A stretch of 64,000 bases of DNA, from positions 32,001 through 96,000 of the IMG/VR virus record IMGVR_UViG_3300027969_000042, one strand, 5' to 3'. Below are positions 9,436-63,912 of the stretch, piece by piece. This stretch comes from a virus. Below the pieces are notes generated by a model. The model made no database searches. It worked only from the letters and a program-made list of their open reading frames with translations, and was not told the origin of the DNA. Numbering within the stretch: the first letter of the stretch is position 1; every line of letters begins with the position of its first letter. Both the position numbers and the translations under genes were made by a program.

Positions 9436-9806
9436 TTATTTAAAATTTTTAATTTTTTGTAATCTAGATTTAAAACTAACTGCGGTTTTATAGTCTCTTT
9501 CCATTAAGGATGGATTATTCCTACTTATTGACTTTACTACACTATCAGATAAACTTAATAGAGTATCACAGTAATCAGTTATAACATTACGTTCAATCTG
9601 TAAATCTAAATATACTTTTTCTAAACTATCAATTGCAGATTTCATAGTCCATATATAATCACTTAATTCATTATATGATCTAAAATAAGTATTAGATTTA
9701 AGATAATCTATAGAATCTTTAATTATTTTTAATTCTTTAATTCTTTTTTCTCAAGTTTTGCAATTGGATCTGATTTGAACCAATTAAATTTTTCTAAGTG
9801 TTTCAT
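9436..9806 (-). pseudogene. Hypothetical gene split by a 1-nt frameshift at an A6 run (9744-9749)
   Basis: ATG at 9806 gives MKHLEKFNWFKSDPIAKLEKKELKN*. The -1 frame is open from the A run into ORF 9436..9645, giving a joined product of about 123 aa. Confidence 0.55.
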
Positions 9807-10225
9807 TATTTATTTATCATTTTAACGACTTCCATAAAAGCACGTTCTGTTCCTTTAATTACATATTCGTATAAACCAAACGCATTTACTTCTGTAGGTG
9901 ATTCATCATAGAACTTTATATTGTTTAAGATCTCATCTATATCATTTCTAAACTTTAAATAAAAGTCATATATATCAGAATCATTTATAAATCCTTCAAC
10001 TTTAACATCTTCTGGATTCTTTTCAAATGATTCAATAAATGATTTTAGTTCACCACCACTTTTTTGTATAGTATTTTCAATCATTTTATTTATTTCTTCT
10101 TTAACTTCAGTATATTTAGAACCATCTAAAGATTTAATACCTTCTGATTCTACTGGTGTTTCGGTTTGAACCTGAGTTGTTGACTCATCTGCTTCGTTTA
10201 TAAACTGTGAATATTTCTTTATCAT
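9806..10225 (-). CDS. Hypothetical acidic protein with CTS-like N-terminus
   Basis: MIKKYSQFINE; TAATATATAG lies just upstream of the ATG. Confidence 0.75.
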   Translation of the reverse strand: MIKKYSQFINEADESTTQVQTETPVESEGIKSLDGSKYTEVKEEINKMIENTIQKSGGELKSFIESFEKNPEDVKVEGFINDSDIYDFYLKFRNDIDEILNNIKFYDESPTEVNAFGLYEYVIKGTERAFMEVVKMINK

Positions 10226-10254
10226 ATACTATATATTAAATTTAAAATATAATT

Positions 10255-13200
10255 TTAACTCCATTTTGCTTTTTCTCCAAAAGTACCATCATACCAAATA
10301 CCTCCTTGCCAGTATCCAGTTTCAAAAATACCATTTGTCCAAATACCTGATCTCCAATCAGTATTTCTAAATCTACTTATAACTCTCATCTTTGTTTCAA
10401 CACCATTTCTATTTTCAAAATAAAAGTCATCATCGTAATAAGTACTACTATTATTAATATTAATATCAGAATCTATATAGATTCTAGTTGTTTTATTATC
10501 TAAATCTGGATTTTCTGCATAAAGTATTTTATATCTTTCTCTTCTAAAATAAGAACTGTAGTATGAACCACCAGATGATAACTGTTCTCCTTTAGGAACA
10601 ATAGTAATCTCATCTCCTATATTAAATCTAAATACTCCATTTAATGTTAAATAAGAATTATCTTGACTAATTTTAACTTTTATTATTTGTATCTCTTCTG
10701 ATATACCACCATACCAAACCCCTGATTTAAAATCAATATTATAGAAAATACCACCATATACATCACCAGAATACCAAGAACCAGTATACCATATTGAATA
10801 TTTATGTGATAAGGAAACTTGAGGTTCATCATTATTATCTAGTATCATTCTTGAATAAAAGCTACCGCTTAACCATTGACCACCATGCCAAGTTGCGGTT
10901 CTACTATTAAATGCTTTTGTTCCAAATCTGGATAAGCCATTTTTTTCCTCAAAAATACCATCATACCACATACCATTCTCAAAGTCTCCACCATTCCATT
11001 TACCATCAATCCAAAATGTTGGATCGTTGTTACAGTTCAGTATACCATCATTCCAAGTACCTGCTATCCAAATTCCACCAGAGAATTCACCATCATTCCA
11101 AGTACCATCATTCCAAGTACCTTTATACCAGTCTCCTGTATTCCAAGTACCACCATACCATCTACCATCAACCCAAACTCCATCGTTCCAAGTACCATCA
11201 TACCATCTTCCAGAAAACCAAGTTGATAAAGATTTATCTGAAGTGTTGTTGGCAACTTCAACAGATATTAAATTATCTTTAATTTTTTTAGCATTCCAAG
11301 TACCACCATACCAATCTCCCGATTTCCAAATACCTGACATCCAAGTACCACCAAACCATCTACCACATTCCCAATTACCTTTATACCAAATAATATTATT
11401 GGCATCAGTTCCAATTATAGCATCAGTAATTTCTGCTTCTAATATCCAAGGATAATTTAACGATAGTGTCTCAACTGTTAAACCATCAACTAGTCTAAAT
11501 CTAAACTTATTAAAATCAACATTTACTAAACTATAAACATCACCTGATAGGTTCAAATTATCAATACTTAATTCTATTGCATTCTTACCTCTTTTATCAA
11601 CACCAATATCAATAATATCAATTGGTTGATAATTTAAAAATGGATCTCTTTTAACATATTTAACAAATCCAGTATCACCAACAGTATTGGCACTAAAAGG
11701 TAAGTCAATATAGAAATTTAATGAATTTACTACAGTTACATTTTGATATCCAAAGTATTGTTGATTTAAAAACTGTGATGAGAAAGTACCTCCATTAAAC
11801 TCTAATGTAACACTATCACCAGTTTTTAAATCATGATTATCTTTACATATTATTAAAACCTTTCCATTATAATTAGTAGTACCAATGATAGGAATAGTAT
11901 ATTCCTTGGCAAGTCTTGTAATATTCATTGCCATCTCATTTTTATAATCAATATAAATTAAAGCAGATAATTCTCTGATAGTATCTACATCAGATAATAA
12001 TACTTTTGCATATGAATCAGTTGGTATTTTAAAGTTTAAATCTCTTTCATAGTTATAAAATTCTGATCCAAGTAACAAGTCTTTTTTCTTTAATAAACCT
12101 CTTTGTATATTATTTAATTCTTGTAAGTCATGACTAATTTGTAATAATGTACGTCTTGATTTAATATCCATTAAAGTAGGATAGTCTGATGTAGAATTTA
12201 TACTTGTTGCAAAGTTTATTTTTTTGTGAAATTCTATAACAAAAGGAGTATTACTAAAATTGGTGTCAGTTGTTATTTCTTTTTTCATAACTAACAATCT
12301 CTCGGTAGTATATGTATCATTTGATGTATAAATAGTAAGATCAATAAAAGTATTGATAAATATACTCTCCCACTCTAATCTCAAATCAGAACCAAAATAT
12401 ATCTTGTTTGATACATAATTATAATCAAAGTAAACCTCTGTTGTTGTTGTACTAGATGCAATTGATGCTGGTACAGATCTATAATCAGGCATTGCTAAGT
12501 ATTCTTTATTTGCATAAAATTTAGGAGTTGGACTCGTATTGTCATTTAATTGCTCTAAATAATCTAAAAGATTATATGTAGGAGTATATCCAAACTTTAG
12601 AAATCCACCAGTATATGACATCGTTGCAATAACAGAGTTAGTTCCTAATCGTATATCATCATTTACAAATACATTAGTTGCTAAGTTATAATATGATGTT
12701 AAGTTGTTAAATTTAGCATTTATAGTTATATTTGATGGAGTGTCTGAACTAGGTGGTGTATAGTTTAAATTATAACCATTAGAAATTGGATGTGAATTAA
12801 AATTATTTTCTAATTCACCAACTGTTTTATATTTATTTAGATTTATTATATTTATAGGACTACTTGTTTTAGTTAAATTTGTAATAATATTCTCATTAAA
12901 ATTAGTAAACATATAAAGATAGTTAAATGATCGATTTGAGGGTGCCATTTGACGTTCAAATTCACTTTGTGGTAAATTCTGAGGTATTGTTAATTCTGAA
13001 ATTCTATTAACAACAAAATTACCATCAACTACATCACTTTCCAATCTGATAACATCACCAACTCTAACAAGATATGTCATAGGTACTCTAATAATCATTA
13101 TTGAATCCTTCAAATAAATTGTAGATAATGCGGTAGGATATGTAATAGTAGGTGGATTCAATCCATTAAACCTACTTTGTTCAAAGTCAATTGATGGAGG

Positions 13201-17257: not shown

Positions 17258-17485
17258 ATGAAATTTATACTTGAATACAAAGCATTTTATAAAGAAGGTG
17301 ATATTGTTCTTACTGAATACTGGTATAATGATATGATAACACCAGTAAGAATAATTGAAAAGGTCTCAAAATCCAGATTTAAAGTAAGTCATGATGTAGA
17401 AGGTTCTTCTATCAGAAATGCACCTGATGAAGTAATAAAGACATCTGAAATATTAGATAAACATAAAACAAAAAACCCATCATAA
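17258..17485 (+). CDS. Hypothetical protein
   Basis: 75-aa ORF; TAATATATACA sits directly before the ATG and a terminator follows. Confidence 0.7.
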   Translation: MKFILEYKAFYKEGDIVLTEYWYNDMITPVRIIEKVSKSRFKVSHDVEGSSIRNAPDEVIKTSEILDKHKTKNPS

Positions 17486-17499: not shown

Positions 17500-18693
17500 T
17501 TAGTCTAACATTTCTTCTACTAAACACTCGTAGAAAAATTTATCATAATCATTGTTCTCAATATCTAAATATTGTTCTCTAATTACTTCTAATTCTCTTT
17601 CTTTCAACTTAGTACCATTGTACTTTGATAAAAGCCAATCGTATTGTTTATCATTTGGAGTAGAAATTTCTACTAAGTTTCCACCATTATCGAAGTAAGT
17701 TTTACCTTTTTTCTTTTGATTTCCTCTTCTTGTTGATTTTTTACCACCATTTCGCATCATTATATCATCTGCACCAGTGTTATCATACCAATCTTCATAG
17801 TAAGTAACGTCTCTGCTCTTAGTACCACTTCTACTCCAAGAACTTCCACTATCAGCTCTTTTAGTTCTAGTAGCATAGTTATCCCAGTCTGCAGGATAAG
17901 AAGCTGTAGTATAAGTTTTGAAAGATTTACCTTCATAAACTGATGTATCTCTTTTTGTTGGTAAGTTTTCCCAATCAACTAATAAACAAGCACTCGCTAA
18001 ATTTACTAAGTGTCTTATATCTTGATTTTCACTTTTAGTGTGTTCTGAATAATAACCTACTGAAACATTTGTACATTCTGGAATAAGGTCAACAAACTCA
18101 GCAGAGTCAGTGTAAACACCACCATCATCTTTAATATATTTTAATTTGTAATCTGATTTGTTTAATTCAGCACAAAAAGCATCTGCAAATTCATCTGAAC
18201 AACATCTTGCCCAAGATTGGTGTGTAATAATTGAGGTAGTACCTCTTCTATCAAAAGAAATAATTCTATCATATATACCTTTAAATTCACCATATTTTGC
18301 TGCTAAACCAGAACCAATACAACCAACTTCTTCACCAATGAAAAAGTAGTATGTTCCTGGAATGTTATGTTTCATCATCCAAATCATAACTGATACGCCT
18401 GCTTTATCATCAGCACCAAGTGTAGTTGTGCCATCAGTTCTAATAGTCTCACCATCAAGTACATGTTTTACTGGTTCGTGTTTACTAGAAACTGTATCTA
18501 AGTGAGAAGCAAAAATTGTTCTTGATTCTCCGATCTTGTAGAAGTAATTTCCGTGAGTGTCTTTACTGATGTCTTTTGGTAAATAACCAAGACTTACCAT
18601 TTCTTCTAAACAAATATCCTCATATCCGTGAGGGTAAGTCTTTGAAGTCAGTTTAAGAAACAACTCAGGAATAAATTTGTTTACGTTTATCAT
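17500..18693 (-). CDS. M20/M28-family zinc peptidase-like protein
   Basis: SHLDTV, LGADDKAGV, GEEVGCIGS, SFDRRG, EHT metal-ligand pattern. Confidence 0.8.
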   Translation of the reverse strand: MINVNKFIPELFLKLTSKTYPHGYEDICLEEMVSLGYLPKDISKDTHGNYFYKIGESRTIFASHLDTVSSKHEPVKHVLDGETIRTDGTTTLGADDKAGVSVMIWMMKHNIPGTYYFFIGEEVGCIGSGLAAKYGEFKGIYDRIISFDRRGTTSIITHQSWARCCSDEFADAFCAELNKSDYKLKYIKDDGGVYTDSAEFVDLIPECTNVSVGYYSEHTKSENQDIRHLVNLASACLLVDWENLPTKRDTSVYEGKSFKTYTTASYPADWDNYATRTKRADSGSSWSRSGTKSRDVTYYEDWYDNTGADDIMMRNGGKKSTRRGNQKKKGKTYFDNGGNLVEISTPNDKQYDWLLSKYNGTKLKERELEVIREQYLDIENNDYDKFFYECLVEEMLD

Positions 18694-19970: not shown

Positions 19971-20435
19971 ATGAGATACCTAAAGAGATATAACGAAGCA
20001 AAAGATACTAGAAGTTTCTATTTTAGTGCCAAACCCGAAGAAGGTGAATTAGATGAACTTAGAGATTTCTGTGAAACACATTTAGCTTATCTTGTAGATA
20101 AAGACTTTGTAGTTGATGTCTCAAATGATTTTACTCATAAAAACTTTCATATTTCTATTCTTAAAGAAGGAAGTAAATATAAAGGATTTACTTGGGAAGA
20201 AATTAAAGATCATTTTATTCCTTTTTTAACACACTTATCAAGAAAATATGATATATGTTATGAAAGTGTAAAATTTAACCCGTTAGTGGGTGGACTTCCT
20301 AAAACATATACATCATATGATGTTGATAGAATTATATCAGAAGATGATCTTAAATTGTTTATTTACTTTCGTGAATTAGAAACTATTTCAGAAGTTTCAA
20401 TTGATATTGAATATAAAATGAATTTACAAGACTAA
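19971..20435 (+). CDS. Hypothetical protein with CTS-like N-terminus
   Basis: MRYLKRYNEA; TTATATATG upstream. Confidence 0.75.
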   Translation: MRYLKRYNEAKDTRSFYFSAKPEEGELDELRDFCETHLAYLVDKDFVVDVSNDFTHKNFHISILKEGSKYKGFTWEEIKDHFIPFLTHLSRKYDICYESVKFNPLVGGLPKTYTSYDVDRIISEDDLKLFIYFRELETISEVSIDIEYKMNLQD

Positions 20436-20607: not shown

Positions 20608-20853
20608 TTAAATCTCTGTTTCTTTTATTAAATCAATTATTCTTTGTCTACTATCTTTACATTGTTCTAAACAACTTTGTAACATTTCTAATCCGGCAGG
20701 ATGGTTTAAAATTTTATCTAATCTTTCCTCTGATAATAAATCCACTAAAGTCCAAAACGGACCTAATTGATTTCTCAATTTTGCTTGTGGTGTTTCATTT
20801 ATCCAATTTCCTTCTTGGTCTTTATGACCTGTACTTTCACTAAACTTTTTCAT
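20608..20853 (-). CDS. Hypothetical protein
   Basis: 81-aa ORF (MKKFSES) coupled to the NUDIX gene. Confidence 0.7.
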   Translation of the reverse strand: MKKFSESTGHKDQEGNWINETPQAKLRNQLGPFWTLVDLLSEERLDKILNHPAGLEMLQSCLEQCKDSRQRIIDLIKETEI

Positions 20854-22966: not shown

Positions 22967-23407
22967 CTATTGATTTACTAAATTTTGAAGCTTGTTCTGC
23001 TGTGTATATAAACGTCCTGAGAAATTGACTGGAGATCCGTGTGTTAAATGTCCACCGTGAGATAAATCAAATCCTAAAATTTTATCACCAGGTTTTAAAC
23101 AAGCGTGAAAAACCGCAGTATTTGCTTGAGAACCAGAGTGTGGTTGTACATTGACATATTCTACACCAAATAATTCCTTGGCTCTTTCAATGGCGATTTT
23201 TTCTACAACATCGACAACTTCACAACCACCATAGTATCTTTTATCTGGATAGCCTTCTGCGTATTTATTTGTTAAACAAGATCCGGCAGCTTTCATTACT
23301 TGATCACTTACAAAGTTTTCTGATGCAATAAGTTCTATTCCGTGAATTTGTCTACTCTCTTCTTCTAATATAAGATCAAAGATTTTACTATCATTTTGTA
23401 CTTTCAT
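22967..23407 (-). pseudogene. glyA: Truncated serine hydroxymethyltransferase (N-terminal ~134 aa)
   Basis: [47 protein letters not shown]; ends after SGRLY with no PLP-lysine THK motif and no continuation in other frames. Confidence 0.85.
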
Positions 23408-26643: not shown

Positions 26644-26889
26644 ATGATTATAAAAAGTTTTAATAAGTTCAACGAAAGTCTTAGTGATCCAATTTTTACA
26701 GATGAGATTCCTCATTATGGTGAATACTATACTATTCCTGAATTTAAAGAAGCTATAGAAGATGGTGACATTACAAAAGATGATGGAACTGGTTATTATT
26801 CAAATGGAGAACATATGAGTAGAAAGAATCCTGTTTTTGATTCAGAAGAACCAGATGGTTCAAGATATGTAATTTGGTTTAATAAATAA
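26644..26889 (+). CDS. Hypothetical protein with CTS-like N-terminus
   Basis: MIIKSFNKFNES; TTATATATACA directly upstream. Confidence 0.7.
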   Translation: MIIKSFNKFNESLSDPIFTDEIPHYGEYYTIPEFKEAIEDGDITKDDGTGYYSNGEHMSRKNPVFDSEEPDGSRYVIWFNK

Positions 26890-35344: not shown

Positions 35345-37069
35345 TTATCTTCTTGTATGTTGGTTTTCGTTTATTCTTTCTATTTCTTTTAAATAGATTT
35401 CTGCGCCTTCTTTAAGAAACTTAGTAAGTCTTTCAACTTCCTTGTAATCCCCTTCATCTAAAGCAGCATCTACAAGTTCTTGAATATCTTTTTGTCTCAT
35501 TTTTGATAGATCTTCATCAGAATATGTTCCGTCATCTTCCGCTGGAGTTTCTTGTATACCTTCTTCTCCAGCCATTTCAGGCACTTCTGGTTCATCATAA
35601 TTAGTTTTAGGTCCAAATCGTTGTTCCATCTCCCATTCTCTTAGAGAACGTTCGTAATCTTCTTCAGTCTCAACAACATGATCAATAAGTTTCTCTACTA
35701 CTTTTTTCGCTTCTGATTGATTAAATCTTTCTGCGTTTATAAAGAATACTAATTTACCTGCTTCCATCTTTTTATCAAAAACAGAAAATAAACTATTGAA
35801 AACTTCTAAGAATTTATTATCAGATAAAGCAAGATCCGCATCTTTCTTAATAATAGCACCTAGATCTTTATCAGTCTTAGAAATTTCTATTGCTTTTGCA
35901 GTTAGTTTATCTTTATCATTGGCTAAAAGTCTAAATATTCTAGTTCTCATTTGTTTATACTTTTGAGAATCTTTACAAGCATTTACAAAATCATTAAACA
36001 TTGCTTGTGCTGTTACACCATATCTAAAATCTTGTGCCTCATCCATAAATGATGAAGTTGCTGCTTTTACTTTTTTAGCAAACTCTTTATCTTTTTTAAT
36101 AGCAGCAGATTGAATCAATAAGTAAATACCTTTAACTGTTTCGTGAATCAACATTGGGAAATCAACACCAACTGCTTTAATAGTAATTTTATTAAAATTT
36201 TGGTTTTCTTTCAATAGTTCAATTGAAAATACACTATTATTTACACTCTCCCAAGTAACATCTGTTGCACCAGCCATTCCACCTGGATTATTACTCATCA
36301 TTGATGCTTTATTGGCAACTGGAATAACCCAGTCCATTTTATCAGCTGTATCGGACATATCTGACCAAATTCTTAAAATTCTACCACCATTTGCACCAAA
36401 TATTTGTTGTAAACCATTTTCAACAAGTGGTGAGAACTTAATAATATCTTTAGTTGCTTTACCTTCACCTTGAGTCAACATATTAAGAATCTTCTTCTTT
36501 AATGAAGCAGTCAAAACATTACCAGTTATATCTTCTGGTTCTTCCGTATTTTCTTCAGCACCTTCAACACTAGAGCAAGATCCATCTGCACAATCATCAT
36601 CTTGTTGATCTTGTTCAGTTTGTTCTTCTTCATCTTCTTCGTGAGTATCATCTGCACGTGGTGGTCTAGCATTTTGTGGAACATCTCTTAAATCAGAGAT
36701 TTGTCTTATAACTTCATTAGGATTTACTAATCTTATATCAAGTTCAACTGGTTTTGCAGATGATTCAAGTATTTCACCGTACTCATCCATAATAACATCT
36801 TTTGCTAAGTTTTGAAGTGCATCAAGTCTTGCTTGCATTTGTTCTCTACCTAATTGTCTACCATCTGGTCCTTGCATCATTAGTTGCATAGATTGGTTCA
36901 TCAATTGTTGAAATTGTGGCCAAATATTTCTCATTTGGCTTTCATCATCAATTCTTACACCTAAATTTCTTCCGGCTTCTTCTTCTGAATTTCTCATGAA
37001 ATCATCTGGAATACCTCTATTTCCTCTTAAATCGATTTCTTCTTTTATAAAGTCTGAAAATTTTCTCAT
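35345..37069 (-). CDS. Hypothetical protein with CTS-like N-terminus and UVR-like C-terminus
   Basis: MRKFSDFIKEE; IHETVKG; LVDAALDEGDYKEVERL. Confidence 0.7.
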   Translation of the reverse strand: MRKFSDFIKEEIDLRGNRGIPDDFMRNSEEEAGRNLGVRIDDESQMRNIWPQFQQLMNQSMQLMMQGPDGRQLGREQMQARLDALQNLAKDVIMDEYGEILESSAKPVELDIRLVNPNEVIRQISDLRDVPQNARPPRADDTHEEDEEEQTEQDQQDDDCADGSCSSVEGAEENTEEPEDITGNVLTASLKKKILNMLTQGEGKATKDIIKFSPLVENGLQQIFGANGGRILRIWSDMSDTADKMDWVIPVANKASMMSNNPGGMAGATDVTWESVNNSVFSIELLKENQNFNKITIKAVGVDFPMLIHETVKGIYLLIQSAAIKKDKEFAKKVKAATSSFMDEAQDFRYGVTAQAMFNDFVNACKDSQKYKQMRTRIFRLLANDKDKLTAKAIEISKTDKDLGAIIKKDADLALSDNKFLEVFNSLFSVFDKKMEAGKLVFFINAERFNQSEAKKVVEKLIDHVVETEEDYERSLREWEMEQRFGPKTNYDEPEVPEMAGEEGIQETPAEDDGTYSDEDLSKMRQKDIQELVDAALDEGDYKEVERLTKFLKEGAEIYLKEIERINENQHTRR

Positions 37070-38246: not shown

Positions 38247-38564
38247 CTATTTGTTTTCTGTGTAAAGGTATTTCCTCCCGTCCACATTGTAAGAGTCTAA
38301 ATTATTCACAACTGTATCTAATTTATCAACACAGTCATCTAAATCTTTTTTAATAATCTGTAAAGCGGCAATTGAGTCATCTATTTGGTCATTACTCTTA
38401 GTGGAACTGTTTCTGTAGTTACTTAATTCAGTACCAAGTGCATCTATCTTTTTAGATCTATCTTCTATATTGGCGATGAAGTCTTTTAACTCATCCATAA
38501 TTTCTGTTATTCTTTCTGTTGATATATCTAATTGATCACTTTCAAAAAATCTTTTTATTTTCAT
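38247..38564 (-). CDS. Coiled-coil hypothetical protein with CTS-like N-terminus
   Basis: MKIKRFFES; heptad-rich. Confidence 0.7.
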   Translation of the reverse strand: MKIKRFFESDQLDISTERITEIMDELKDFIANIEDRSKKIDALGTELSNYRNSSTKSNDQIDDSIAALQIIKKDLDDCVDKLDTVVNNLDSYNVDGRKYLYTENK

Positions 38565-38599: not shown

Positions 38600-39283
38600 A
38601 TGAAAAGACAAAATAAACTAATTTTAGAATTTACTGAATTTAACTTACAAAGAATGAATTCAGATTCTGTTCAAGCATCTACACACGTTGATGATCCTTC
38701 ATTATCTATCAATGCTTTTGATAAGAATCAAGATATGATTAGACAAGCTATGTCACGTATCAATGACATTATGTATAATTTGAAGGGAACTAACGCATAT
38801 AAAGCTCTTAGAAGTAAATTGGCTCTAGAAGAACAGGATATTAAAAGATTAAAGGTTTTAAGAATAGTTAAATCAACTTCATTAAAATATGATATTTATA
38901 TAGCATTTACAATTGGTGAAGAAGAATATTGGGGAGTTTTAGAAGATATGATGTCAGGTTCACCTGACTTTACATCGGAAGTTTTTAAAGATGCTGATTT
39001 ATATCAACCTAAAGAATGGATTATTAAAATAAAAGGTTTAATTGTTAAAACATTAAAAACTTGGTTGAAACCAGATCCTGGAATGTATAGACTTTTAAAT
39101 GATGAAGTTCTTTGTTATTCTGTTGAAACTGGAAAACAATTAAGAATGGAAAAAGGAATTGAAATAGAATTGATTAGATCACATAATGATAAAATAGTTA
39201 TTAAACACAATTCTGATATATATAACTTAGTTGGAGATAATTATGTTTACTTCAATTGGTGGTTTGAAAAACTAGAAGAATAA
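38600..39283 (+). CDS. Hypothetical protein
   Basis: Likely start MKRQNKLILEFTEFN at 38600, behind TAATATATA. Confidence 0.7.
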   Translation: MKRQNKLILEFTEFNLQRMNSDSVQASTHVDDPSLSINAFDKNQDMIRQAMSRINDIMYNLKGTNAYKALRSKLALEEQDIKRLKVLRIVKSTSLKYDIYIAFTIGEEEYWGVLEDMMSGSPDFTSEVFKDADLYQPKEWIIKIKGLIVKTLKTWLKPDPGMYRLLNDEVLCYSVETGKQLRMEKGIEIELIRSHNDKIVIKHNSDIYNLVGDNYVYFNWWFEKLEE

Positions 39284-47649: not shown

Positions 47650-49098
47650 TTAAAGTTGAATAGCTTTAATTTCATTGAAAAGAGCTTTTTTATCCATCTC
47701 CATCATCTTCATTACATCGAAAACTTTATCAGAGAAACCAGCTAAAGCAAATACATTGTTTTCTGGAAACTGCATTGTACCAAGACCCGCTAAATCCCAA
47801 GAGTAAACATAAGGATTTGCATCATACGTTTTCTTGTATTGTTTGAACTCAGCAGTTGGACTTGTGTAACCAACCCATCCTTGCATATCTGAAAGGATAA
47901 CAACTCTATCATACTTTTTATTAGCAGTAGTAAAGATTGACTTGAAGTTTGTTCCACCTCCAGAGTATCTAAAACTATTTCTAATTGTCATAACAGAATC
48001 CATTGGGTTGTATGACTTGTAGTCCGATCTATTCGCGAATGTTAAAACATCTGCGTTGTTGGATTTTGCTAAAATAGCACCAAATAATGAAGCAATCTCA
48101 GAAGGTCTTCCACTCATTGATCCAGAAACGTCCATAACAACTAATGTATCACCATCAAACTTAGGAACATTACACATTGAAACCTCTAACGCTTGGTTTA
48201 TCGCAACTAAAACGTCTCTAACTCCTTTTGAAGATCCCATTTTACTGATTTCTTCGTAAGCAGTTGCAAATCTAAAAGGTAAAACTCTTGATTTACTAAT
48301 CATTCTTTCATCTACTAACAACTCACAAGCAGCAGGAACTACGTTAGGTGCTTGATTTAAGATGTTTCTTAGGTTTCTCAAAAGTGCAAAATAACCAATT
48401 TTTCTTGAAGTGATTAAATCAGTCCAAGCATCAGATTTTAATTGACTTAAATCTTCTTCATTCTCAGCTACTTGACCTGCTTGAGAAAGTTTAGCTTCCC
48501 AAGTTTCTGTGTTTTTCAAATCACCTTTAACAAGTAATTCTAAAGCAGTTTTGTTTCTATCAGTTGGAACTGGGTGTACAATGTTCACTAAGTCAACTAA
48601 TTTAAGGTCTTTGTTTTTACCAGAGTATTTTGCTAATTGATAAGCATCGAATTTATCGAAAGCTTTTGCAAATCCTTTTTTCAAAGAGTTTGGAAACTTT
48701 GGATTGTCTTTACTTGTTTTGTGTAATAAGTAGTATGACATAATCTCAGTCATATCATCAACACGAACTACAACTTTGTCATAGAAGTTTTTACCTAATT
48801 CACTACCTTTTAACTCTGATGCCAATTCACCAGCTAAAGCGTGAGTAATACTTCTCATACCAAATTTATCACGAGCATAAATTGCTGCTTTTGCTGAGAA
48901 CTCAGGATCTACTTTCTTAACCAAGTTTCTTAAATCTTTTAATGTATCATTACCAGACTTATAGAATTGATCATTTACGAATGAAGTCAATAACATAGAT
49001 ACTAAAGCTAATTCATTTGTTTGAGAATAAGCTTCACCACCTGCTAGGTTTATAGTTTTTGTTTTTGGCTCTTTTACGGTTGTGTTAAATTTTGACAT
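47650..49098 (-). CDS. rsr: Ro60/TROVE-domain RNA-binding protein with C-terminal vWA
   Basis: NLAGGEAY, AIYARDKFGMRS, QLAKY, DLVNIVHP, ALLRNLRNI, SRVLPFRF, MIDAS-like DVSGSM, GGGT, LSDMQ. Confidence 0.93.
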   Translation of the reverse strand: MSKFNTTVKEPKTKTINLAGGEAYSQTNELALVSMLLTSFVNDQFYKSGNDTLKDLRNLVKKVDPEFSAKAAIYARDKFGMRSITHALAGELASELKGSELGKNFYDKVVVRVDDMTEIMSYYLLHKTSKDNPKFPNSLKKGFAKAFDKFDAYQLAKYSGKNKDLKLVDLVNIVHPVPTDRNKTALELLVKGDLKNTETWEAKLSQAGQVAENEEDLSQLKSDAWTDLITSRKIGYFALLRNLRNILNQAPNVVPAACELLVDERMISKSRVLPFRFATAYEEISKMGSSKGVRDVLVAINQALEVSMCNVPKFDGDTLVVMDVSGSMSGRPSEIASLFGAILAKSNNADVLTFANRSDYKSYNPMDSVMTIRNSFRYSGGGTNFKSIFTTANKKYDRVVILSDMQGWVGYTSPTAEFKQYKKTYDANPYVYSWDLAGLGTMQFPENNVFALAGFSDKVFDVMKMMEMDKKALFNEIKAIQL

Positions 49099-49130
49099 AT
49101 TATTATTTTATTTTTATTTCGTTTTTTTGT

Positions 49131-49171
49131 AAAAAAAAAGACCAGAATTACATTTCTGTAAATCTGGTCTT
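49131..49171 (-). terminator. Intrinsic terminator between the ncRNAs and the Ro60 gene
   Basis: Minus strand: AAGACCAGA-loop-TCTGGTCT plus a T run, ending about 32 nt before the Ro60 ATG. Confidence 0.75.
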
Positions 49172-49182
49172 ATTATAATTTA

Positions 49183-49408
49183 GCAAACAAGAATATTAGC
49201 CTAAGCGACGCAAAGAATTCTACTTAACTTTGCCGATATTTAAAGTAACATCTCACTCATATTTTTAAAGGAAACTTATGAATTCCTGACTTTTCGACCA
49301 GAGGCAAGCGCTATTGCCCTTACATGGTAGCATAGAGTAGTCGTCTCTATACGTTCTTTCTGATAGTTGTATAATATACGAAGTATCTTAGAACTTTGCT
49401 ATGTTTGC
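49183..49408 (-). ncRNA. Y-RNA-like structured RNA 2 (~226 nt)
   Basis: Ends pair (GCAAACA/TGTTTGC 7 bp; CTAAG/CTTAG 5 bp); internal hairpins ATAGAG/CTCTAT, GGCAA/TTGCC, AGGAA/TTCCT, CAAAG/CTTTG; shares TAGCAAA-N6-AGATACTTCG with RNA 1. Confidence 0.6.
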
Positions 49409-49427
49409 GTTTTTTTATAAATAAAAC

Positions 49428-49492
49428 CAGAGTAAGTTATCTTAGAGAGTTTTTTTGAATCCATATCGAAGTATCTCTATGATTTGCTACTG
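49428..49492 (-). ncRNA. Y-RNA-like structured RNA 1 (~65 nt)
   Basis: Terminal CAG/CTG and TAGAGA/TCTCTA stems; same TAGCAAA-N6-AGATACTTCG motif. Confidence 0.55.
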
Positions 49493-49614
49493 ATTGTATT
49501 ATTGTATTATTAAATTAGAAAAAGTTTAATCTTTTTCTAATTTATTTTATGTATATAGTAACCTTGAAAATTTCGCTTTTTTCCAAGGTGGATTTTTTAT
49601 AGTGTTCTAGAATG

Positions 49615-49978: not shown

Positions 49979-52528
49979 TTATGAACCACAAGCTAAACAA
50001 TCATCAGGATTGTCTAACGAACAACTGATTTCTGCCATTTGGTCTTCAACAGATTTCACTTCTTCTTGAGTTGTGAATTTAACTGCATCACCTGCTGCTT
50101 TATTTCTTAGATAGTAAATACCTGTTTTTAATGAAGCTTTTTTCTCTCTATAGAATCTAGCTTTACCAGCTTTATCATAGATTACTTCTGTATTTTCTCC
50201 TTGTGGGATAATTTCAACACCATGTTCATCTTTCATAAGAGCTCTTCTTCCCCATCCGTAAAAGTGCATTGCTGTCAATTTTGCGAAGTTTGGTGAATCC
50301 ATAAAGATATTCATAGATTGAGTTTGATCAATAAATGCTCCTCTTTCTGCTGCCATATCAATTACATCTCTTTGTTTAATCTCATAAACAGTTTTAAAGA
50401 TTTCTTTTACATTAGTAGGTACTTCAGGGATATTCTGAACTGAACCATTCTCTGCAATAATTTTTCTTCTAATGTTATCTGACCAGATACCTAATTTAAC
50501 TAATTCTTTTACAAGGTATTTGTTTACAATGATAAAAGTACCAGATAAAACACCTCTTGTGTACATATTTGAAGTTTGTGCTTCACAACTTGCTTCGTTT
50601 CCTAAGATAGATGCAGTTGATGCAGTTGGCATAATACAAGTAGTTAAAGAATTTCTAACACCATATTTTTTAATATCTTCTCTTAATTTATCCCAATCCC
50701 ATCTTTTTGTTGGTTTTGCACCCCATAAATCAAATTGGAATTTTCCCTCTGATATTGGAGATCCTTTAAATGTTGGATAAGCGCCTTCTACTTTAGCTAA
50801 ATCACAAGAAGCTTTAATCGAAGCATAATAAATAGTTTCAAAAATTTCTTTGTTTAATGATTTCGCTTCATCAGAATCATAAGTAATTCCTAATAAAAAG
50901 AATACATCTGCCAATCCTTGAACTCCTAAACCAATTGGTCTATGTAATAAGTTTGAGAATCTAGCTGCTTCTGATGGATAAAAATTTACATCAATAACCT
51001 TATTCAAGTTTACAGTAGCTTGATAAGCAACATCATATAATTTATTATGATTATAAGTTTTGTTTTTATTTACAAATTTAGGAAGTGCAATAGAAGCTAA
51101 GTTACAAACAGCAGTTTCATTTACAGATTCTTCACCATAGAATGAACCTAATCCTAAACTTTCAAGTAATTCTTTATTTTGAAGAATTTCTTTTTGTACT
51201 TTAGTAATTCCAGTGGCTTCAACAATTTCTGCACACAAATTAGAACTTCTAACTACACCAATGTTTGATTGGTTAGACTTCTCATTGATAGAATCTTTAT
51301 ATAAAATATAAGGTGTTCCTGTTTCAATTTGAGATTCTAAGATTTTATTCCAAACCTCTCTTGCTTTTATTACTTTTTTAAATCGTCCTTCTGATTCATA
51401 ACTAATGTATAAGTCTCTAAATTCTTGGCCATAAGTTTCAGTTAAACCAGGACACTCGTGTGGACACATTAAAGACCAATCTTCATCTAAGTCAACTCTT
51501 TCCATAAATAAGTCATTAGTCCACATAGCCAAGAATAAATCTCTTGCTCTGATTTCATCTTTACCTTGGTTTTTTCTTAAATCTAGGAAATCCATAATAT
51601 CTGCATGCCAAGGTTCCATATAAATTGCTATTGAACCTTTTCTTTTTCCACCACCTTGATCTACCGCTCTTGCAGTTTCATTGAAGATTTTTAAGAAAGG
51701 AATAATACCATTTGAAGTACCATTAGTTCCGGCAATATAAGTACCTTTAGCTCTTACTTTTGTAAAAGAAATACCAATACCACCTGCATTTTTAGAAATT
51801 TGTGCAGACTCTTTTAGTGTATTGAAGATACCTTCGATAGAATCTGATTCTGTATCAAGTAAGAAACAAGATGATAATTGTGGTCTTGTTGTTCCAGAGT
51901 TGAATAATGTTGGTGTAGCGTGTGTATAATAACCTTCTGAAAGTAAGTTATAAGTATCGATAACACCTTGTATGTCTTCACCACATACTTGTAGTGCTGT
52001 TCTCATATACATATATTGAGGTCTTTCGGCAACTTTACCGTCAAGTTTCAATAGATATGATTTTTCTAATGTTTTGAATCCAAAGTAATCAAAATTATGA
52101 TCTCTGGAGTGTACAATTGCAGAATCTAATTCATCTGCGTGTTTTTTTACAATATCACGGAAAGTTTTAGAAACAATCGGTGAATGTTTTCTAGTTTTTG
52201 GATCTATGTATTTGTATAAATCAGAAACCGTTTCTGAAAAACTCTTTTTAGTTTCTTTGTGTAATGCCGTAATTGCTAATCTAGCCGCTAATGTTGAATA
52301 GTCAGGGTGTTTTGTTGTAAGAGATGCCGCAGTCTCCATTGCTAGAGAATCTAAAACAGAAGTTTGAATATCTGGCATAATACCTTCAATTACTTTTTGG
52401 GCAACTTCAAATGGTACAATCCATTTCTGGTCTAGTCCATAAGTTTGTTGTGTGATTCTATCTAAGATTTTGTCTAACATGACTGGCTCTTTCTTACCAT
52501 TTCTTTTCATTACTTTTATCATGCTCAT
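49979..52528 (-). CDS. nrdA: Class Ia ribonucleotide reductase alpha subunit with ATP cone
   Basis: ATP cone, TPTLFNSGT, QLSSCFL, GGGKRKG, SNLCAEI, VCNLAS, PTASTA, GIYYLR, C-terminal CLAC. Confidence 0.97.
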   Translation of the reverse strand: MSMIKVMKRNGKKEPVMLDKILDRITQQTYGLDQKWIVPFEVAQKVIEGIMPDIQTSVLDSLAMETAASLTTKHPDYSTLAARLAITALHKETKKSFSETVSDLYKYIDPKTRKHSPIVSKTFRDIVKKHADELDSAIVHSRDHNFDYFGFKTLEKSYLLKLDGKVAERPQYMYMRTALQVCGEDIQGVIDTYNLLSEGYYTHATPTLFNSGTTRPQLSSCFLLDTESDSIEGIFNTLKESAQISKNAGGIGISFTKVRAKGTYIAGTNGTSNGIIPFLKIFNETARAVDQGGGKRKGSIAIYMEPWHADIMDFLDLRKNQGKDEIRARDLFLAMWTNDLFMERVDLDEDWSLMCPHECPGLTETYGQEFRDLYISYESEGRFKKVIKAREVWNKILESQIETGTPYILYKDSINEKSNQSNIGVVRSSNLCAEIVEATGITKVQKEILQNKELLESLGLGSFYGEESVNETAVCNLASIALPKFVNKNKTYNHNKLYDVAYQATVNLNKVIDVNFYPSEAARFSNLLHRPIGLGVQGLADVFFLLGITYDSDEAKSLNKEIFETIYYASIKASCDLAKVEGAYPTFKGSPISEGKFQFDLWGAKPTKRWDWDKLREDIKKYGVRNSLTTCIMPTASTASILGNEASCEAQTSNMYTRGVLSGTFIIVNKYLVKELVKLGIWSDNIRRKIIAENGSVQNIPEVPTNVKEIFKTVYEIKQRDVIDMAAERGAFIDQTQSMNIFMDSPNFAKLTAMHFYGWGRRALMKDEHGVEIIPQGENTEVIYDKAGKARFYREKKASLKTGIYYLRNKAAGDAVKFTTQEEVKSVEDQMAEISCSLDNPDDCLACGS

Positions 52529-55021: not shown

Positions 55022-55804
55022 TTACTGTTCATTAATCATTTCACCATCTGTTGGTTTAAGAGTAAAGTCCGATACCTTCTTTATAACAGTGGTATCGACT
55101 TCATCAACTATTTCTTTTTTATCTTTTGGACTAATTTTATCTTTAAGTCTGTCAATAATATTAATTATTCCATTCTTTGCAATTAAAGTTCCAACACCCA
55201 TTGTTAAAGCGGCAAAGTTTTCAAGGAAAGTATCTACATTTAAGTCATATTTTCCTATTACATAAAGAATTCCATTCATTATAGGTATCAAAATTGCAGT
55301 ATAAGCAAACATATCAATAAAATTTTTTGCAACTGCACTTAAATGTTTTCCAATTATTGTAAAAATACTAGTAATAGACTTAAATAGTTTGACAACTTTC
55401 TTAACAATTCCATTCCCGATACCCATCATTTTTAATTCTTCTAACATAGATTTAGAATCTTTTGTTAAAATCTCTTCTTCTTGACCATCTTTGAATTTCT
55501 TCTCTTCTAAATATACTATAGTAAAAGCACATATTGTAAGAAGTACTACTTTATCAGCTGTAATGTCAATAGAACTAATTTTCATATTAGTCATTAGTTT
55601 ATCAACTATTGGATAAAGAGCTTTGATACCAGTACCAAATGTTAAAGATAAATTTCCATTTAATCTTAAATCACTTATTACTCTTTTTTGAACTTTTTTA
55701 TACTCTGTTTCGTCAGATTCGGTAATTAAACCATCAAATGAATTGATAAAATCCAACGCCATTGAATCTTGAAGTGAGTATTGTTGAAATTTCTGTATTT
55801 TCAT
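55022..55804 (-). CDS. Hypothetical membrane protein
   Basis: 260 aa, hydrophobic helices, MKIQKFQQY start; TAATATATA upstream. Confidence 0.7.
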   Translation of the reverse strand: MKIQKFQQYSLQDSMALDFINSFDGLITESDETEYKKVQKRVISDLRLNGNLSLTFGTGIKALYPIVDKLMTNMKISSIDITADKVVLLTICAFTIVYLEEKKFKDGQEEEILTKDSKSMLEELKMMGIGNGIVKKVVKLFKSITSIFTIIGKHLSAVAKNFIDMFAYTAILIPIMNGILYVIGKYDLNVDTFLENFAALTMGVGTLIAKNGIINIIDRLKDKISPKDKKEIVDEVDTTVIKKVSDFTLKPTDGEMINEQ

Positions 55805-55888: not shown

Positions 55889-56476
55889 ATGAAACACATT
55901 AAAAAATTTGAGAACTTTAGTTTTGAAGAAGAGGAAAAGTTCGGTAGATTCGCACAAGAACGTGAAAGTGACACGGTTAAATTTGGCGAAGAAGGTAACG
56001 AATTCAACGATGAAGACTTTGATGATCAAAATTGTGAGTTTTGTAACTGTGCACCATGTAATTGTGAAGATGCACAAGAAGAAGAAGAAACTAATGAATT
56101 AGGTGAAGAAGAAGATGACTATGGTCAATCTGATGAGGAAGCTGACGAAGAAGATGATCAAGAAGAACACAGAATCAGAAGATGGGGAGATGAAGAAATC
56201 GTTGAAAAGAAAAAAGTAAACGCAGGTTTTCAAGCTTACTTAGATAAACAAAAAGCTAAAAGTAAAGGTAAAGAAGACGATAAAAAAGGTGGAAAAGGTA
56301 AACCAGATTTCTTAGATTTAGATAAAGATGGTGATAAAAAAGAAACTATGAAAAAAGCTGCTAAAGATGCCAAAGAAGATGATGATAAAGGTACTGCTAA
56401 AAAAGGTTTAACTGCAGGACAGAAAAAACTTCCTGAGGCAATGCAAAAAGCTATTCTTAAAAAACAAGGTAAATAG
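55889..56476 (+). CDS. Charge-bipartite protein (acidic N-half, Lys-rich C-half), possibly head core/scaffold-like
   Basis: MKHIKKFENF; CEFCNCAPCNC; PDFLDLDKDGDKKETMKKAAKD. Confidence 0.7.
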   Translation: MKHIKKFENFSFEEEEKFGRFAQERESDTVKFGEEGNEFNDEDFDDQNCEFCNCAPCNCEDAQEEEETNELGEEEDDYGQSDEEADEEDDQEEHRIRRWGDEEIVEKKKVNAGFQAYLDKQKAKSKGKEDDKKGGKGKPDFLDLDKDGDKKETMKKAAKDAKEDDDKGTAKKGLTAGQKKLPEAMQKAILKKQGK

Positions 56477-58535: not shown

Positions 58536-58536
58536 A

Positions 58537-60120: not shown

Positions 60121-60151
60121 TTTGGTACTTAAATTATTTTTTGTATATTTG
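60121..60151 (+). promoter_or_regulatory. Bacteroidota sigma-A-type promoter
   Basis: TTTG-N19-TATATTTG, a consensus match. Confidence 0.85.
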
Positions 60152-60172
60152 TAAAACAAACAAATAGATAAT

Positions 60173-60598: not shown

Positions 60599-60613
60599 AT
60601 GTGAGACTTTTTT
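60577..60613. terminator. Bidirectional terminator
   Basis: AAAAAAGTCTCA...TGAGACTTTTTT. Confidence 0.8.
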
Positions 60614-60640
60614 AATTCATTTATAAAGTAAGAAGAATTA

Positions 60641-60985: not shown

Positions 60986-61036
60986 AGTATTATTTATATT
61001 TTTTTTTATTTTTTTATTGAAAGGTTTTAATTCTAC

Positions 61037-61378
61037 CTAAAACGGTGCAACATTTTCTTTGTCGTCTAAAGGATAAGCTTCTTTTTTCTCGAAATCTACA
61101 TGTATTGAATCTCCTACATTAAAAGTAAGATTGTCTGTAGAAAATTCTACTTCTTTACCTTGAGAATCTTTACCGTGTACATTAAAGTAGTTATGTTTAC
61201 CACCACCCATCTCAATTCTTTTAACCATTAAGTCTCCATTGTATTGATCAGATGCCTCACCTTCTACATGTCCATTATGACAAGCAGTCGCTAAAGCCAT
61301 AATAGCACCTAGTGCCACATTTTTAAGATTTAATTCTTCATTTGTTGAATGTGATTCAAATGTTTTTAAATGTTTCAT
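61037..61378 (-). CDS. Hypothetical protein, CTS-like N-terminus followed by a lipobox-like segment
   Basis: MKHLKTFESHSTNEE-LNLKNVALGAIMALATAC. Confidence 0.75.
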   Translation of the reverse strand: MKHLKTFESHSTNEELNLKNVALGAIMALATACHNGHVEGEASDQYNGDLMVKRIEMGGGKHNYFNVHGKDSQGKEVEFSTDNLTFNVGDSIHVDFEKKEAYPLDDKENVAPF

Positions 61379-61451
61379 ATTTATTTATATCTTTTTGACT
61401 TATTATATATTATATTTAAAAAACCATTTTTTTATTTTTTATATAATAACT

Positions 61452-62129: not shown

Positions 62130-62157
62130 AAAAGTCGAGATTTACTCGACTTTTTTT
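62129..62157. terminator. Bidirectional terminator
   Basis: AAAAAGTCGAG-attta-CTCGACTTTTT. Confidence 0.85.
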
Positions 62158-62158
62158 A

Positions 62159-62980
62159 TTATTTTAATAAGTTATAATACTCATTGAAATGTTTAATTCT
62201 ATCATCTAATCCGATAGTACCACCATTTACTCTTTTTGTTACAGCAGTAACTGTTGCCTTATCAGCACCTTTATCACAGATAGCCCAAAGACCATTAGAG
62301 TTAAAGAAGAAAGCAGCAGAAGCTAAAGGATATTTAGTTGCAACTAAATCTGGATTTGAAGCAATATCTTCTCCAATAAATTTACCGAATCTTGTGTAGT
62401 TTTCTTTACCAGTCAATTGAATAAAACCTCTTCCTCTGAATTTGAATCCTTCTTTTGAAGCTTCATCACCGTTACCCATTCTTGACGCATAAACTCTTGA
62501 GGCAATCTTTTCTGGATTTCTAGCATATAAGTCTGACATATTACCAGGAAAATATTTTCCAAATATTTTTTTCAAACCATCTGCTGAATAATTTACATTT
62601 TCAGTAACTGCTTTGAACCCACCACTCTCGTGACCACACTGTGATAAAAAGTGAGCCAATCTTAAATTTGTTGTAATACCAAATTTTGCAGCAGTATCAG
62701 GAATCTGTGCAATTACTGAATCAGGAATATGTCCTTTTAATTTTTCTAATTTAAGTGTTCCTGACACAACCGGAGCAACTGCTGGAGAAGAGCCAAACAT
62801 TTTTGTCCAAGTTCCATCACCAACGATACCATCTGCAGTTAAACCATTAGCAGTTTGCCATTGTTTTACTAACTTTTCAGTGCCCGGACCAAAATCTCCA
62901 TCTACACTAGTACCTAATTTTTCTTGGAGTTTCTTAACATCATCTCCTTCTGAACCTACTTTTAATAACATAACTTTCAA
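62159..62980 (-). CDS. Endolysin: peptidoglycan-binding domain plus GH19 muramidase
   Basis: LKVGSEGDDVKKLQ..DG.FGPGT..DGIVG; AHFLSQCGHESGGF, RGRGFIQLTG, VNGG. Confidence 0.92.
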   Translation of the reverse strand: MKVMLLKVGSEGDDVKKLQEKLGTSVDGDFGPGTEKLVKQWQTANGLTADGIVGDGTWTKMFGSSPAVAPVVSGTLKLEKLKGHIPDSVIAQIPDTAAKFGITTNLRLAHFLSQCGHESGGFKAVTENVNYSADGLKKIFGKYFPGNMSDLYARNPEKIASRVYASRMGNGDEASKEGFKFRGRGFIQLTGKENYTRFGKFIGEDIASNPDLVATKYPLASAAFFFNSNGLWAICDKGADKATVTAVTKRVNGGTIGLDDRIKHFNEYYNLLK

Positions 62981-63024
62981 TATTTTCTTTTATATATTTA
63001 AAAAAAATATTGAAATTTATCCTA

Positions 63025-63372
63025 CTAGTTAAGTAATTGTTTAATTATCGAGTCTCTATTGTACTTTATGAACCAGTTTTTATCATTAAATTCTATCTCA
63101 TAAATAATCTTAGTATTGGGATAGTCAATGTTTTCAAGTGTTATATCTGAGTTTTCTAATTTCATATGAATATATTTTTTCTTTATTCCATAGATATTAC
63201 TTAACTTAATGATAAATCGATCAGAGTATGTCATTCTTAAAGAATTATCATCTTCTATTTTATAGATTGTACTAATATCATAAAACCCGATGTGTTTATC
63301 ACCACACTTTATTTCAACTGTGTTATGTACACATAACTTTTGATAGGATAATCTATTAATTTTTAATTGCAT
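63025..63372 (-). CDS. Hypothetical protein
   Basis: 115 aa ending NRDSIIKQLLN; the start codon is uncertain. Confidence 0.6.
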   Translation of the reverse strand: MQLKINRLSYQKLCVHNTVEIKCGDKHIGFYDISTIYKIEDDNSLRMTYSDRFIIKLSNIYGIKKKYIHMKLENSDITLENIDYPNTKIIYEIEFNDKNWFIKYNRDSIIKQLLN

Positions 63373-63408
63373 GAAACAAATATAGTTTTTTTATTTAATA
63401 TATATATT

Positions 63409-63912
63409 ATGAAATACTTAAAATTATATCAAAAGTTTTTTGAAGATGGTGAAGGTGGCGGAACCGCTACCGTAAATGTTTCAAATACTGCAGGAATGGG
63501 TGCGGTTGTTGCTGCACAAGTTGGTCCTTTACCAGGTGTACCTGGAACAAGTGGATCAGGTGACATTGGATTTGGATTAGGTGGTGCACAAACTAAAACA
63601 CCAATAGACAGTTTCAATGGTAAGAAGAAAAAGAAAGATAAAAAAGGTGATCCTAGTCAAGTATCTGATTTAAGAGATTTAGAGGAAGTAAGTACTAGCG
63701 AGTCATTGGGATGGGAAGAACCAAGTGATGATAATACATTTGATTCTGCAACAAAATGTGTAGAATTATATTACTGGCTTTGTAATGATAAAGTTGATAA
63801 AGAACTACTTGATAAAGGTATTGAAGAAATAACCGGTGGTGAAGGTTGGTATTCACTAGATGATGAAACACTTAATCAACTAATTGACTTTTTAGAAAAC
63901 TATAATAAATAA
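63409..63912 (+). CDS. Hypothetical protein with CTS-like N-terminus
   Basis: Likely start MKYLKLYQKFFED at 63409, directly behind TAATATATATA. Confidence 0.7.
   Translation: MKYLKLYQKFFEDGEGGGTATVNVSNTAGMGAVVAAQVGPLPGVPGTSGSGDIGFGLGGAQTKTPIDSFNGKKKKKDKKGDPSQVSDLRDLEEVSTSESLGWEEPSDDNTFDSATKCVELYYWLCNDKVDKELLDKGIEEITGGEGWYSLDDETLNQLIDFLENYNK

Follow-up and report, generated by a model that had tools for sequence, protein, structure and literature searches.

A short N-terminal tag resembling the T4 capsid-targeting sequence recurs on unrelated proteins of an uncultured virus related to huge phages

The 64,000-nucleotide (nt) stretch analysed here (the window) comprises bases 32,001-96,000 of one viral contig, IMG/VR record IMGVR_UViG_3300027969_000042 (177,545 bp, 29% G+C, 74% complete by CheckV estimate). 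About a quarter of the contig's genes encode proteins that begin with variants of one peptide of 10-13 residues, hereafter the tag, which is genuine, specific to the N-terminus and under constraint at the peptide level. It is fairly likely to be a capsid (prohead-core) targeting and processing tag of the type of the phage T4 capsid-targeting sequence (CTS), used on dozens of proteins; packing into the capsid, with trimming inside it, is the probable fate of these unrelated proteins, and the system is then a greatly enlarged variant of the T4 capsid-targeting system. We regard this as the best explanation because of the N-terminal enrichment of the tag, the constraint on its peptide, the repetition of its core in a scaffold-like protein, the presence of the motif in the capsid protein and the retrieval of T4 internal proteins by a profile trained on this phage.

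A recurrent N-terminal peptide on unrelated proteins

Genes were called contig-wide with a codon model trained on the contig's long open reading frames (ORFs), yielding 172 genes that cover 93% of the DNA, 62 of them wholly within the window. The tag core reads Phi-K-x-[FYW]-x-x-[FYL] (Phi, hydrophobic residue), mostly followed by Phi-x-E, and occurs at the extreme N-terminus in two registers. It starts at residue 2 in register B (MIKKYxxFIxE, for example MIKKYSQFINE and MIKKFNEFLKE) and at residue 4 in register A (MKYLKxFExF, for example MKYLKLFEEF and MKHIKKFENF). Register-specific regular expressions recover it in 36 of the 172 genes, or 44 with looser forms, and 16 of the 62 window genes are tagged. 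An earlier note on this DNA had listed about 19 such starts in the window as a large repertoire, which the contig-wide figures show to have been an undercount. All 19 N-termini quoted there translate as written and are real, although MKKFSES (20853), MKFILEYKAF (17258) and MKRQNKLILEFTEF (38600) are weak matches. The start given as MMKLFKY at 35332 does carry the tag, but its first M is encoded by TTG, the codon immediately upstream of the ATG at 35329; MKHLEKFNWF (9806) is likewise present as a peptide, but in a mini-ORF of 25 codons rather than a normal gene.

A strict form of the core, [LIVM][KR].[FYW]..[FYWLI] within the first six offsets, was found at 24 of the 172 gene starts, versus 2 of 780 internal-Met windows and 8 of 471 spurious ATG-ORFs from the same DNA. 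When residues 2-13 were shuffled 1000 times, the same pattern appeared 3.1 times on average and at most 9 times. A diffuse model (lambda 0.72) was all that a free expectation-maximisation search of residues 2-18 produced, and a seeded leave-one-out position weight matrix (PWM) was used instead; this scored at least 7 bits at 30 of 172 starts, 0 of 780 internal-Met windows, 3 of 471 spurious ORFs and 8 of 46,382 internal positions. The comparison with shuffled controls that the earlier note had proposed thus places the motif far above chance. Information in the PWM is highest at two aromatic columns three residues apart ([YF], 2.2 bits; F, 2.8 bits), followed by the Phi and Glu columns. The mean helical hydrophobic moment is 0.50 for tags and 0.30 for untagged N-termini (p 1e-10). 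An [LI]-x-E site starting at residues 6-15 is present in 24 of 42 tagged versus 21 of 128 untagged genes (p 1e-6), and in 35 of 42 versus 28 of 128 if Phe is also allowed, while the phiKZ-type site [SAG]-x-E is not enriched (3 of 42 tagged, 13 of 128 untagged).

Such a motif might be a by-product of the DNA itself: of A/T-rich start codons in a genome of 29% G+C, of translation initiation, possibly leaderless, or of a recombining cassette of promoter, start and tag. Codons for the residues of the tag (K, Y, L, I, F, N and E) are indeed A/T-rich, and a conserved TTTAATATATA sits just 4-6 nt before many starts. Yet shuffling destroys the motif, spurious ORFs rarely contain it, and codon choice in the tag is genome-like and no more A/T-biased than elsewhere (synonymous use, tag versus genome: AAA 0.75 and 0.81, TTT 0.85 and 0.80, GAA 0.72 and 0.79). 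Against a cassette, identical residues at the same tag position do not share codons above expectation (observed 0.70 in register A and 0.49 in register B; expected 0.64 and 0.62), and the longest DNA words common to the 5' regions of tagged genes are at most 22 nt. Synonymous sites vary in the tag-matching DNA of relatives, substitutions within the tag are conservative at the protein level (F/Y/W, I/L/V, K/R), and 16 untagged genes carry the same close-set promoter element. From codon use, codon sharing and the short shared words we conclude that the constraint is on the peptide; A/T bias and a recently copied DNA cassette are ruled out, and a nucleotide-level origin in general is largely refuted and highly improbable. 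A signal peptide or membrane anchor was also considered and rejected, as no tagged protein has a hydrophobic segment.

Beyond the tag the proteins are unrelated, as the earlier note had stated: an all-versus-all BLASTP of 44 tagged proteins without their first 15 residues returned one weak pair. Its observation that enzymes lack the tag holds as well, the recognisable enzymes of the window (two NUDIX proteins, a ligase, a metallophosphoesterase, a serine hydroxymethyltransferase fragment and a RecA-like protein) all being untagged. Most tagged proteins are small ORFans with no relatives found beyond the clade and no Pfam family; the families recognised are DUF5856, GH108 (lysozyme-like), NFACT-R_1, DUF6576 and a probable ankyrin-repeat protein. 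Residues following the tag are acidic and disorder-prone (net charge -2.4 versus -0.4, p 3e-6). In the AlphaFold2 (AF2) model of the tagged protein of 574 amino acids (aa), the tag forms a helix at residues 2-11, followed by coil at 12-23 and then the body, for which Foldseek found no match in the PDB. The tag is kept in 114 of 114 full-length orthologues of this protein, with F4, F/Y7, I/V8 and E10 held and the x positions varying. The 691-aa ankyrin-like protein has a 44% identical orthologue in the uncultured phage LR745206; it and the 574-aa protein diverge much faster than the major capsid protein (31-44% versus 71% identity to LR745206), and no cultured-phage homologue of either was found. 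A homologue search with the DUF5856 protein met close orthologues only, all tagged, and did not meet the body without a tag elsewhere. A tagged 354-aa protein (MISKYNQFLINE, L005:14773-15837 (+), outside the window) has an untagged 379-aa paralogue (L006:12996-14135 (+); 29% identity over 197 aa), so that the same body occurs with and without the tag.

The head module and the likely role of the tag

Among the contig's genes are those for a gp23-type capsid protein (Pfam Gp23, 98 bits) and a gp20-type portal (Portal_T4, 199 bits). The gene directly upstream of the capsid gene encodes a 730-aa protein composed of a protease-like N-terminal domain, a repeat region and an acidic tail. Foldseek matched the AF2 model of residues 1-210 (mean predicted local distance difference test score, pLDDT, 83) best to T4 gp21, 5JBL (E 1.8e-6, probability 1.00, template-modelling score 0.55/0.70), and next to herpesvirus assemblins. 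The Pfam match to Peptidase_S77 is weak (17.8 bits, below the cut-off), and BLASTP against T4 gp21 gave E 9e-5. Because phmmer, run against PDB sequences with the capsid protein and with the 730-aa protein, returned nothing useful, the protease is shown by its fold: as modelled, the N-terminal domain folds like the T4 gp21 protease. His72 and Ser127 are invariant across 45 relatives.

A proteome-wide scan for Ar-x-x-Ar-Phi-x-E (Ar, aromatic residue) turned up, apart from the tags themselves, a tandem array of ten Y-S-E-Y-[ILV]-A-E copies in this same protein, at aa 305-437 with a 14-residue period. The repeat is kept in most of about 150 family representatives, down to about 40% identity of the protease domain; the unit Y-x-x-Y-[LIV]-x-E hardly varies among them, and covariation between tag and repeat is thus not measurable. 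LR745206, LR756501 and LR756504 also have the repeat, with tags on neighbouring ORFs. The motif recurs in the N-terminal region of the capsid protein (...WMSEYAEFHSINE-NAYVNASN...), where EYAEFHSINE occupies aa 34-43, and the tag of the 167-aa protein at 63409 aligns onto it (E 4e-7). The capsid protein has no Glu from residue 44 to about 130, and a Glu-specific protease could therefore cut it no later than after I-N-E43.

In T4 the CTS is found on the internal proteins IPI, IPII and IPIII and as the short propeptides of Alt and gp24, and is removed by the prohead protease gp21 (Mullaney and Black 1996, reviewed in PMC9026906 and PMC3012670). Residues 4 and 7 are the main determinants of targeting, residues 8 and 10 those of processing; the gp21 site is L/I-X-E, with cleavage after the Glu, while the scaffold protein gp22 is cleaved to several pieces and is accompanied by the internal proteins in purification (PMC9026906). 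When the PWM trained on this phage alone was applied to 134 ORFs in 90 kb of the T4 record, the three best scores belonged to IPI (9.1 bits), IPII and IPIII (8.2 bits each); gene 54 came fourth, under 7 bits, and gp24, a gp21-cleaved head protein, fifth. The information peaks of the tag match T4 positions 4, 7, 8 and 10, and the likeness to the CTS that the earlier note had pointed out is thus specific. The 65-residue propeptide of T4 gp23 ends in F-G-S-F-L-T-E (residues 59-65); the Ar-x-x-Ar-Phi-x-E expression has no match in T4 gp22.

From these features we infer packaging and cleavage of the tagged proteins along the following lines. The tag helix would dock on the assembling prohead core by mimicking one scaffold repeat unit, and tagged proteins would be enclosed as the shell forms around the core. 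Once activated, the protease would cleave tags, scaffold repeats and capsid propeptide alike behind the Glu of Phi-x-E (in the propeptide, after I-N-E43). Pieces of scaffold would exit, leaving the cargo with the DNA, and the cargo would be ejected with it into the host, a final step taken over from T4 only. In the earlier note's picture of packaged, co-injected effectors, the likeness to the CTS is borne out and the required head machinery is present, whereas packaging, cleavage and injection would follow only by analogy with T4. Several tagged proteins, among them the 574-aa and DUF5856 proteins, are conserved throughout the clade, which suits internal parts of the head and effectors alike.

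Several further observations weigh against a capsid address. The ten repeats are one evolutionary event, so the motif match there counts once, at about 0.4% by chance on our own estimate from the background rate of the scan. The alignment of the capsid protein to T4 gp23 (21% identity) is too weak to place the motif at a homologous cleavage position. Seven of 42 tags lack any [LIVMF]-x-E, and register A tags often have the Glu immediately after the first aromatic residue (LFE, FNE). The tagged set is acidic (median isoelectric point 4.8, 33 of 42 below 6), unlike the basic internal proteins of T4; one member, with an RNA-binding domain (NFACT-R), is no obvious capsid protein; a quarter of all genes would make a very large cargo list; and no homologue of a tagged protein was found in any cultured phage with a virion proteome.

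The acidic cargo with its NFACT-R and ankyrin-like members and the very large number of tagged genes would suit a tag that docks on a non-capsid partner, for instance a hub protein of phage or host, a chaperone or a compartment. Amphipathic helices with aromatics at i and i+3 are common interaction motifs, and the likeness to scaffold and T4 would then be convergence of short helices of this kind. That account is quite unlikely, since it needs three coincidences in the head module (the scaffold repeats, the motif in the capsid N-terminus and the homology of the 63409 protein to the capsid protein right after the tag), and both the retrieval of T4's internal proteins and the [LI]-x-E enrichment would be due to chance. 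A different question is whether proteins led into the prohead by the tag work there, as core components, inner-body-like DNA organisers or assembly factors, with no injected effectors among them. The clade-wide conservation of the 574-aa and DUF5856 proteins, which are not hypervariable, speaks for such a role, as do the two tagged genes that lie inside the head module, the tagged 63409 protein that copies part of the capsid protein, and the many internal structural proteins held by phiKZ-type giant capsids (PMC5694885). Most tagged proteins are, however, ORFans confined to the clade, the capsid protein evolves far more slowly than the 691-aa and 574-aa proteins, the ankyrin-like and GH108 lysozyme-like proteins look host-directed, and the CTS proteins of T4 are ejected (PMC9026906). 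We therefore consider a purely in-head role unlikely, if less so than a non-capsid partner, and retain the CTS-type capsid tag as the preferred interpretation.

A bolder extension is put forward tentatively, and we hold it with less than even confidence: that Bacteroidota phages of the Mahaphage clade (up to 735 kb) load and inject about 50-150 proteins per genome by means of one tag equivalent to one repeat unit of the protease-scaffold. Huge phages have hundreds of genes without a function, and none of this clade has been cultured; if the tag is a capsid address, a simple profile would mark the proteins that travel with the DNA. Such proteins would act before any phage gene is expressed, anti-defence and takeover factors being the likeliest. 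Genome sequence would then suffice to read off what uncultured huge phages package and inject, and the scaffold itself could have given rise to the tag. That tag, scaffold repeat and capsid propeptide are linked suggests that a CTS works by imitating a scaffold unit. A short tag with its cognate protease site could also serve as a protein-packaging tool.

Several other features of the head genes were recorded. The portal (L007:10862-12625 (-), outside the window) starts with MASYNNFSQE, which scores 12.3 bits with the tag profile; this start, a candidate tag, is only partly conserved in relatives (MASYNNFSGG, MASYDRYRGN). Between the portal and protease-scaffold genes lies a gene for a full-length RNase II/R-type exoribonuclease (L007:8524-10407 (+), outside the window; Pfam RNB E 2e-107, plus CSD2 and S1 domains). 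An untagged 108-aa protein (window -10659..-10333 (-), L002:6341-6667) duplicates the capsid protein's N-terminal ~130 residues at 32% identity (E 4e-20), with WMSQYAGF and AMKVAAQTIGLDLVSVKP present, the middle deleted and a basic RKRKINNI tail. Three paralogous "peptidase" genes (window 17500-18693 (-), L006:15158-16435 (-) and L006:17055-18431 (-)) match phrog_4191 and, weakly, Pfam M28, and share a YYFF[IL]GE motif; two of them lie in the head module just downstream of the capsid gene, interleaved with tagged genes.

Tagged genes and other features of the window

Starts with the tag or a tag-like peptide in the window are listed in Table 1.

Table 1. Genes of the window with tagged or tag-like N-termini (window positions).
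Position	Strand	Product and N-terminus	Remarks
9729..9806	-	mini-ORF MKHLEKFNWF..., 25 codons (MKHLEKFNWFKSDPIAKLEKKELKN)	reality uncertain
9806..10225	-	139-aa tagged protein MIKKYSQFINE (register B)	PWM 22.8 bits; acidic T/Q/E-rich linker after tag; no Pfam family
17258..17485	+	75-aa protein MKFILEYKAFYKE	tag weak/atypical; TTTAATATATA 4 nt upstream
19971..20435	+	154-aa tagged protein MRYLKRYNEA (register A)	
20608..20853	-	81-aa protein MKKFSES	weak match only
26644..26889	+	81-aa tagged protein MIIKSFNKFNES	PWM 12.3 bits
26905..27135	+	76-aa tagged protein MIKKFNEFLKES	top-scoring tag, PWM 24.4 bits
33254..35329	-	691-aa tagged protein MKLFKYNQFLN, probable ankyrin-repeat	Ank_2 E 0.003; Atlas 0.98, 212 shared features
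35345..37069	-	574-aa tagged protein MRKFSDFIKEE	PWM 20.8 bits
37071..37259	-	62-aa tagged protein MGFIKKYKMFTEE	PWM 17.0 bits
37341..37862	+	173-aa tagged protein MKKFSTIRKIYEQEE	linker of ~60 aa, P/Q/E-rich, then DUF5856 (aa 78-169)
38247..38564	-	105-aa protein MKIKRFFES	looser tag
38600..39283	+	227-aa protein MKRQNKLILEFTEF	loose; core displaced ~5 residues
49615..49914	-	99-aa tagged protein MKNIKLFEHF	
55022..55804	-	260-aa protein MKIQKFQQY	looser tag
55889..56476	+	195-aa tagged protein MKHIKKFENFSFEEEE	PWM 21.4 bits
60641..60985	-	114-aa tagged protein MRYLKTFESHSINEEE	tag end HSINE as in the capsid protein's internal EFHSINE
61037..61378	-	113-aa tagged protein MKHLKTFESHSTNEE	
63409..63912	+	167-aa tagged protein MKYLKLYQKFFED	tag aligns on major capsid protein residues 29-43, homology continuing beyond

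The mini-ORF has little beyond the tag, and the stop codon of the upstream tagged gene shares nucleotides with its ATG (TAATG); a remnant and a free tag peptide are both conceivable.

AATATATA, usually inside TTTAATATATA, stands no more than 80 nt upstream of the start in 24 of 42 tagged versus 34 of 130 untagged genes (odds ratio 3.8, p 3e-4). The association of tagged genes with an ATATATA late-type motif, reported in the earlier note, is thus real but not exclusive to them: the element also precedes the protease-scaffold gene, a head-module peptidase, several very large ORFs, and the untagged genes for PhoH and an 849-aa protein (49979-52528). The promoter-like TTTAATATATA is spaced 4-6 nt from the ATG in about 28 genes and 18-27 nt in about 25 others; examples genome-wide include those upstream of the window genes at 9806-10225, 17258, 26644 and 63409. 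The close-set class may give leaderless or near-leaderless mRNAs, and late-type timing of the element is plausible.

Two further features of the window were recorded. A 146-aa ORF at 22967-23407 (-) aligns to serine hydroxymethyltransferase over the initial third of that enzyme alone (Pfam SHMT positions 3-132 of 399, E 4e-58) and is, judged from this match, a truncated or split glyA-like gene. The 482-aa protein at 47650-49098 (-) matches phrog_850 "RNA-binding protein" and lies beside the only long ORF-free gap of the window (~49100-49600).

Relatives and comparison with known systems

A megablast of the window against phage records gave no match, and very close relatives of the head genes were found on contigs of 400-640 kb. 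The major capsid protein is 71% identical to that of the uncultured phage LR745206.1 (634,780 bp), 52-53% to those of LR756501/LR756503 (735,411 bp) and LR756504, 35% to that of LR756500, and 29% to those of Prevotella Lak phages and of Tenacibaculum phage PTm1, the nearest cultured relative. Al-Shayeb et al. 2020 placed the largest huge-phage genomes in a "Mahaphage" clade with predicted Bacteroidetes hosts (PMC7162821). The extent of the tag in relatives was gauged with narrow DNA patterns, that for register A being M-K-[YH]-Phi-K-x-[FY] (reversed-pattern control, 0-2 matches). Register A was matched 9 times in this contig, 53 times in LR745206, 33 in LR756504, 13 in LR756500 and 0 in LR756501; the respective numbers for register B were 5, 6, 0, 0 and 9. 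By these patterns, the tag system runs through the clade, in relatives of up to 735 kb, with lineage-specific register preferences. At the Lak phage locus, ORFs cover only 64% of the DNA under table 11, which would fit another genetic code. In the open-access literature searched, descriptions of the CTS are confined to T4 and its close relatives, and long propeptides have been described in phiKZ-like phages; a connection of huge phages to a capsid-targeting tag, or to CTS-like scaffold repeats in tandem, was not met in any paper.

The closest parallel is T4 itself. Both systems place a peptide of 10-13 residues at the N-terminus of unrelated proteins, with aromatics at i and i+3 followed by Ile/Leu-x-Glu (T4, MKTYQEFIAE), and a protease of the gp21 fold, a capsid protein of the gp23 type and a portal of the gp20 type are common to the two phages. 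The N-terminal region of the capsid protein carries the same motif shape in each (FGSFLTE in T4 gp23, EYAEFHSINE here). They differ in scale, with 36-44 tagged genes in 177 kb here, and no fewer than 53 strict register-A starts in the 635-kb relative, against a handful in T4, and in the second register, MKYLKxFExF, which is not seen in T4. The cargo here is acidic and reaches 691 aa, whereas T4 internal proteins are basic; the protease here is fused to a scaffold-like region of ten tag-core copies, whereas T4 gp21 and gp22 are separate. Packaging has been shown in T4 and is here predicted from the genes.

Giant phages of the phiKZ type (phiKZ, 201phi2-1, SPN3US) have about 50 head proteins, with N-terminal propeptides cut after Glu by the gp21-related proteases gp175/gp245 (PMC5694885, PMC9026906), and no scaffold counterpart has been confirmed in them (PMC5694885). 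The likeness lies in large phages loading many proteins by way of N-terminal peptides with Glu cleavage, which is predicted here. Their propeptides, however, mostly exceed 100 residues and are not a common short tag, unlike the shared 10-13-aa tags of this contig, and their S/A/G-x-E cleavage motif is not the one enriched here.

In PTm1, ORF-300 lies directly upstream of the gp23-type capsid gene, as the 730-aa gene does here, and likewise combines a protease domain with a repeat-rich acidic tail; its depositors annotated it as "prohead core scaffolding protein and protease". Its repeat unit differs (..FTKELSEGIEKWI..), though L-x-E is present. Two nearby ORFs of PTm1 (AP019524.1 199617-224680) share an N-terminal peptide of their own, [KR]KLYxxISEN[FL][IV]xE, and this cultured phage may offer a bench system for this kind of tag.

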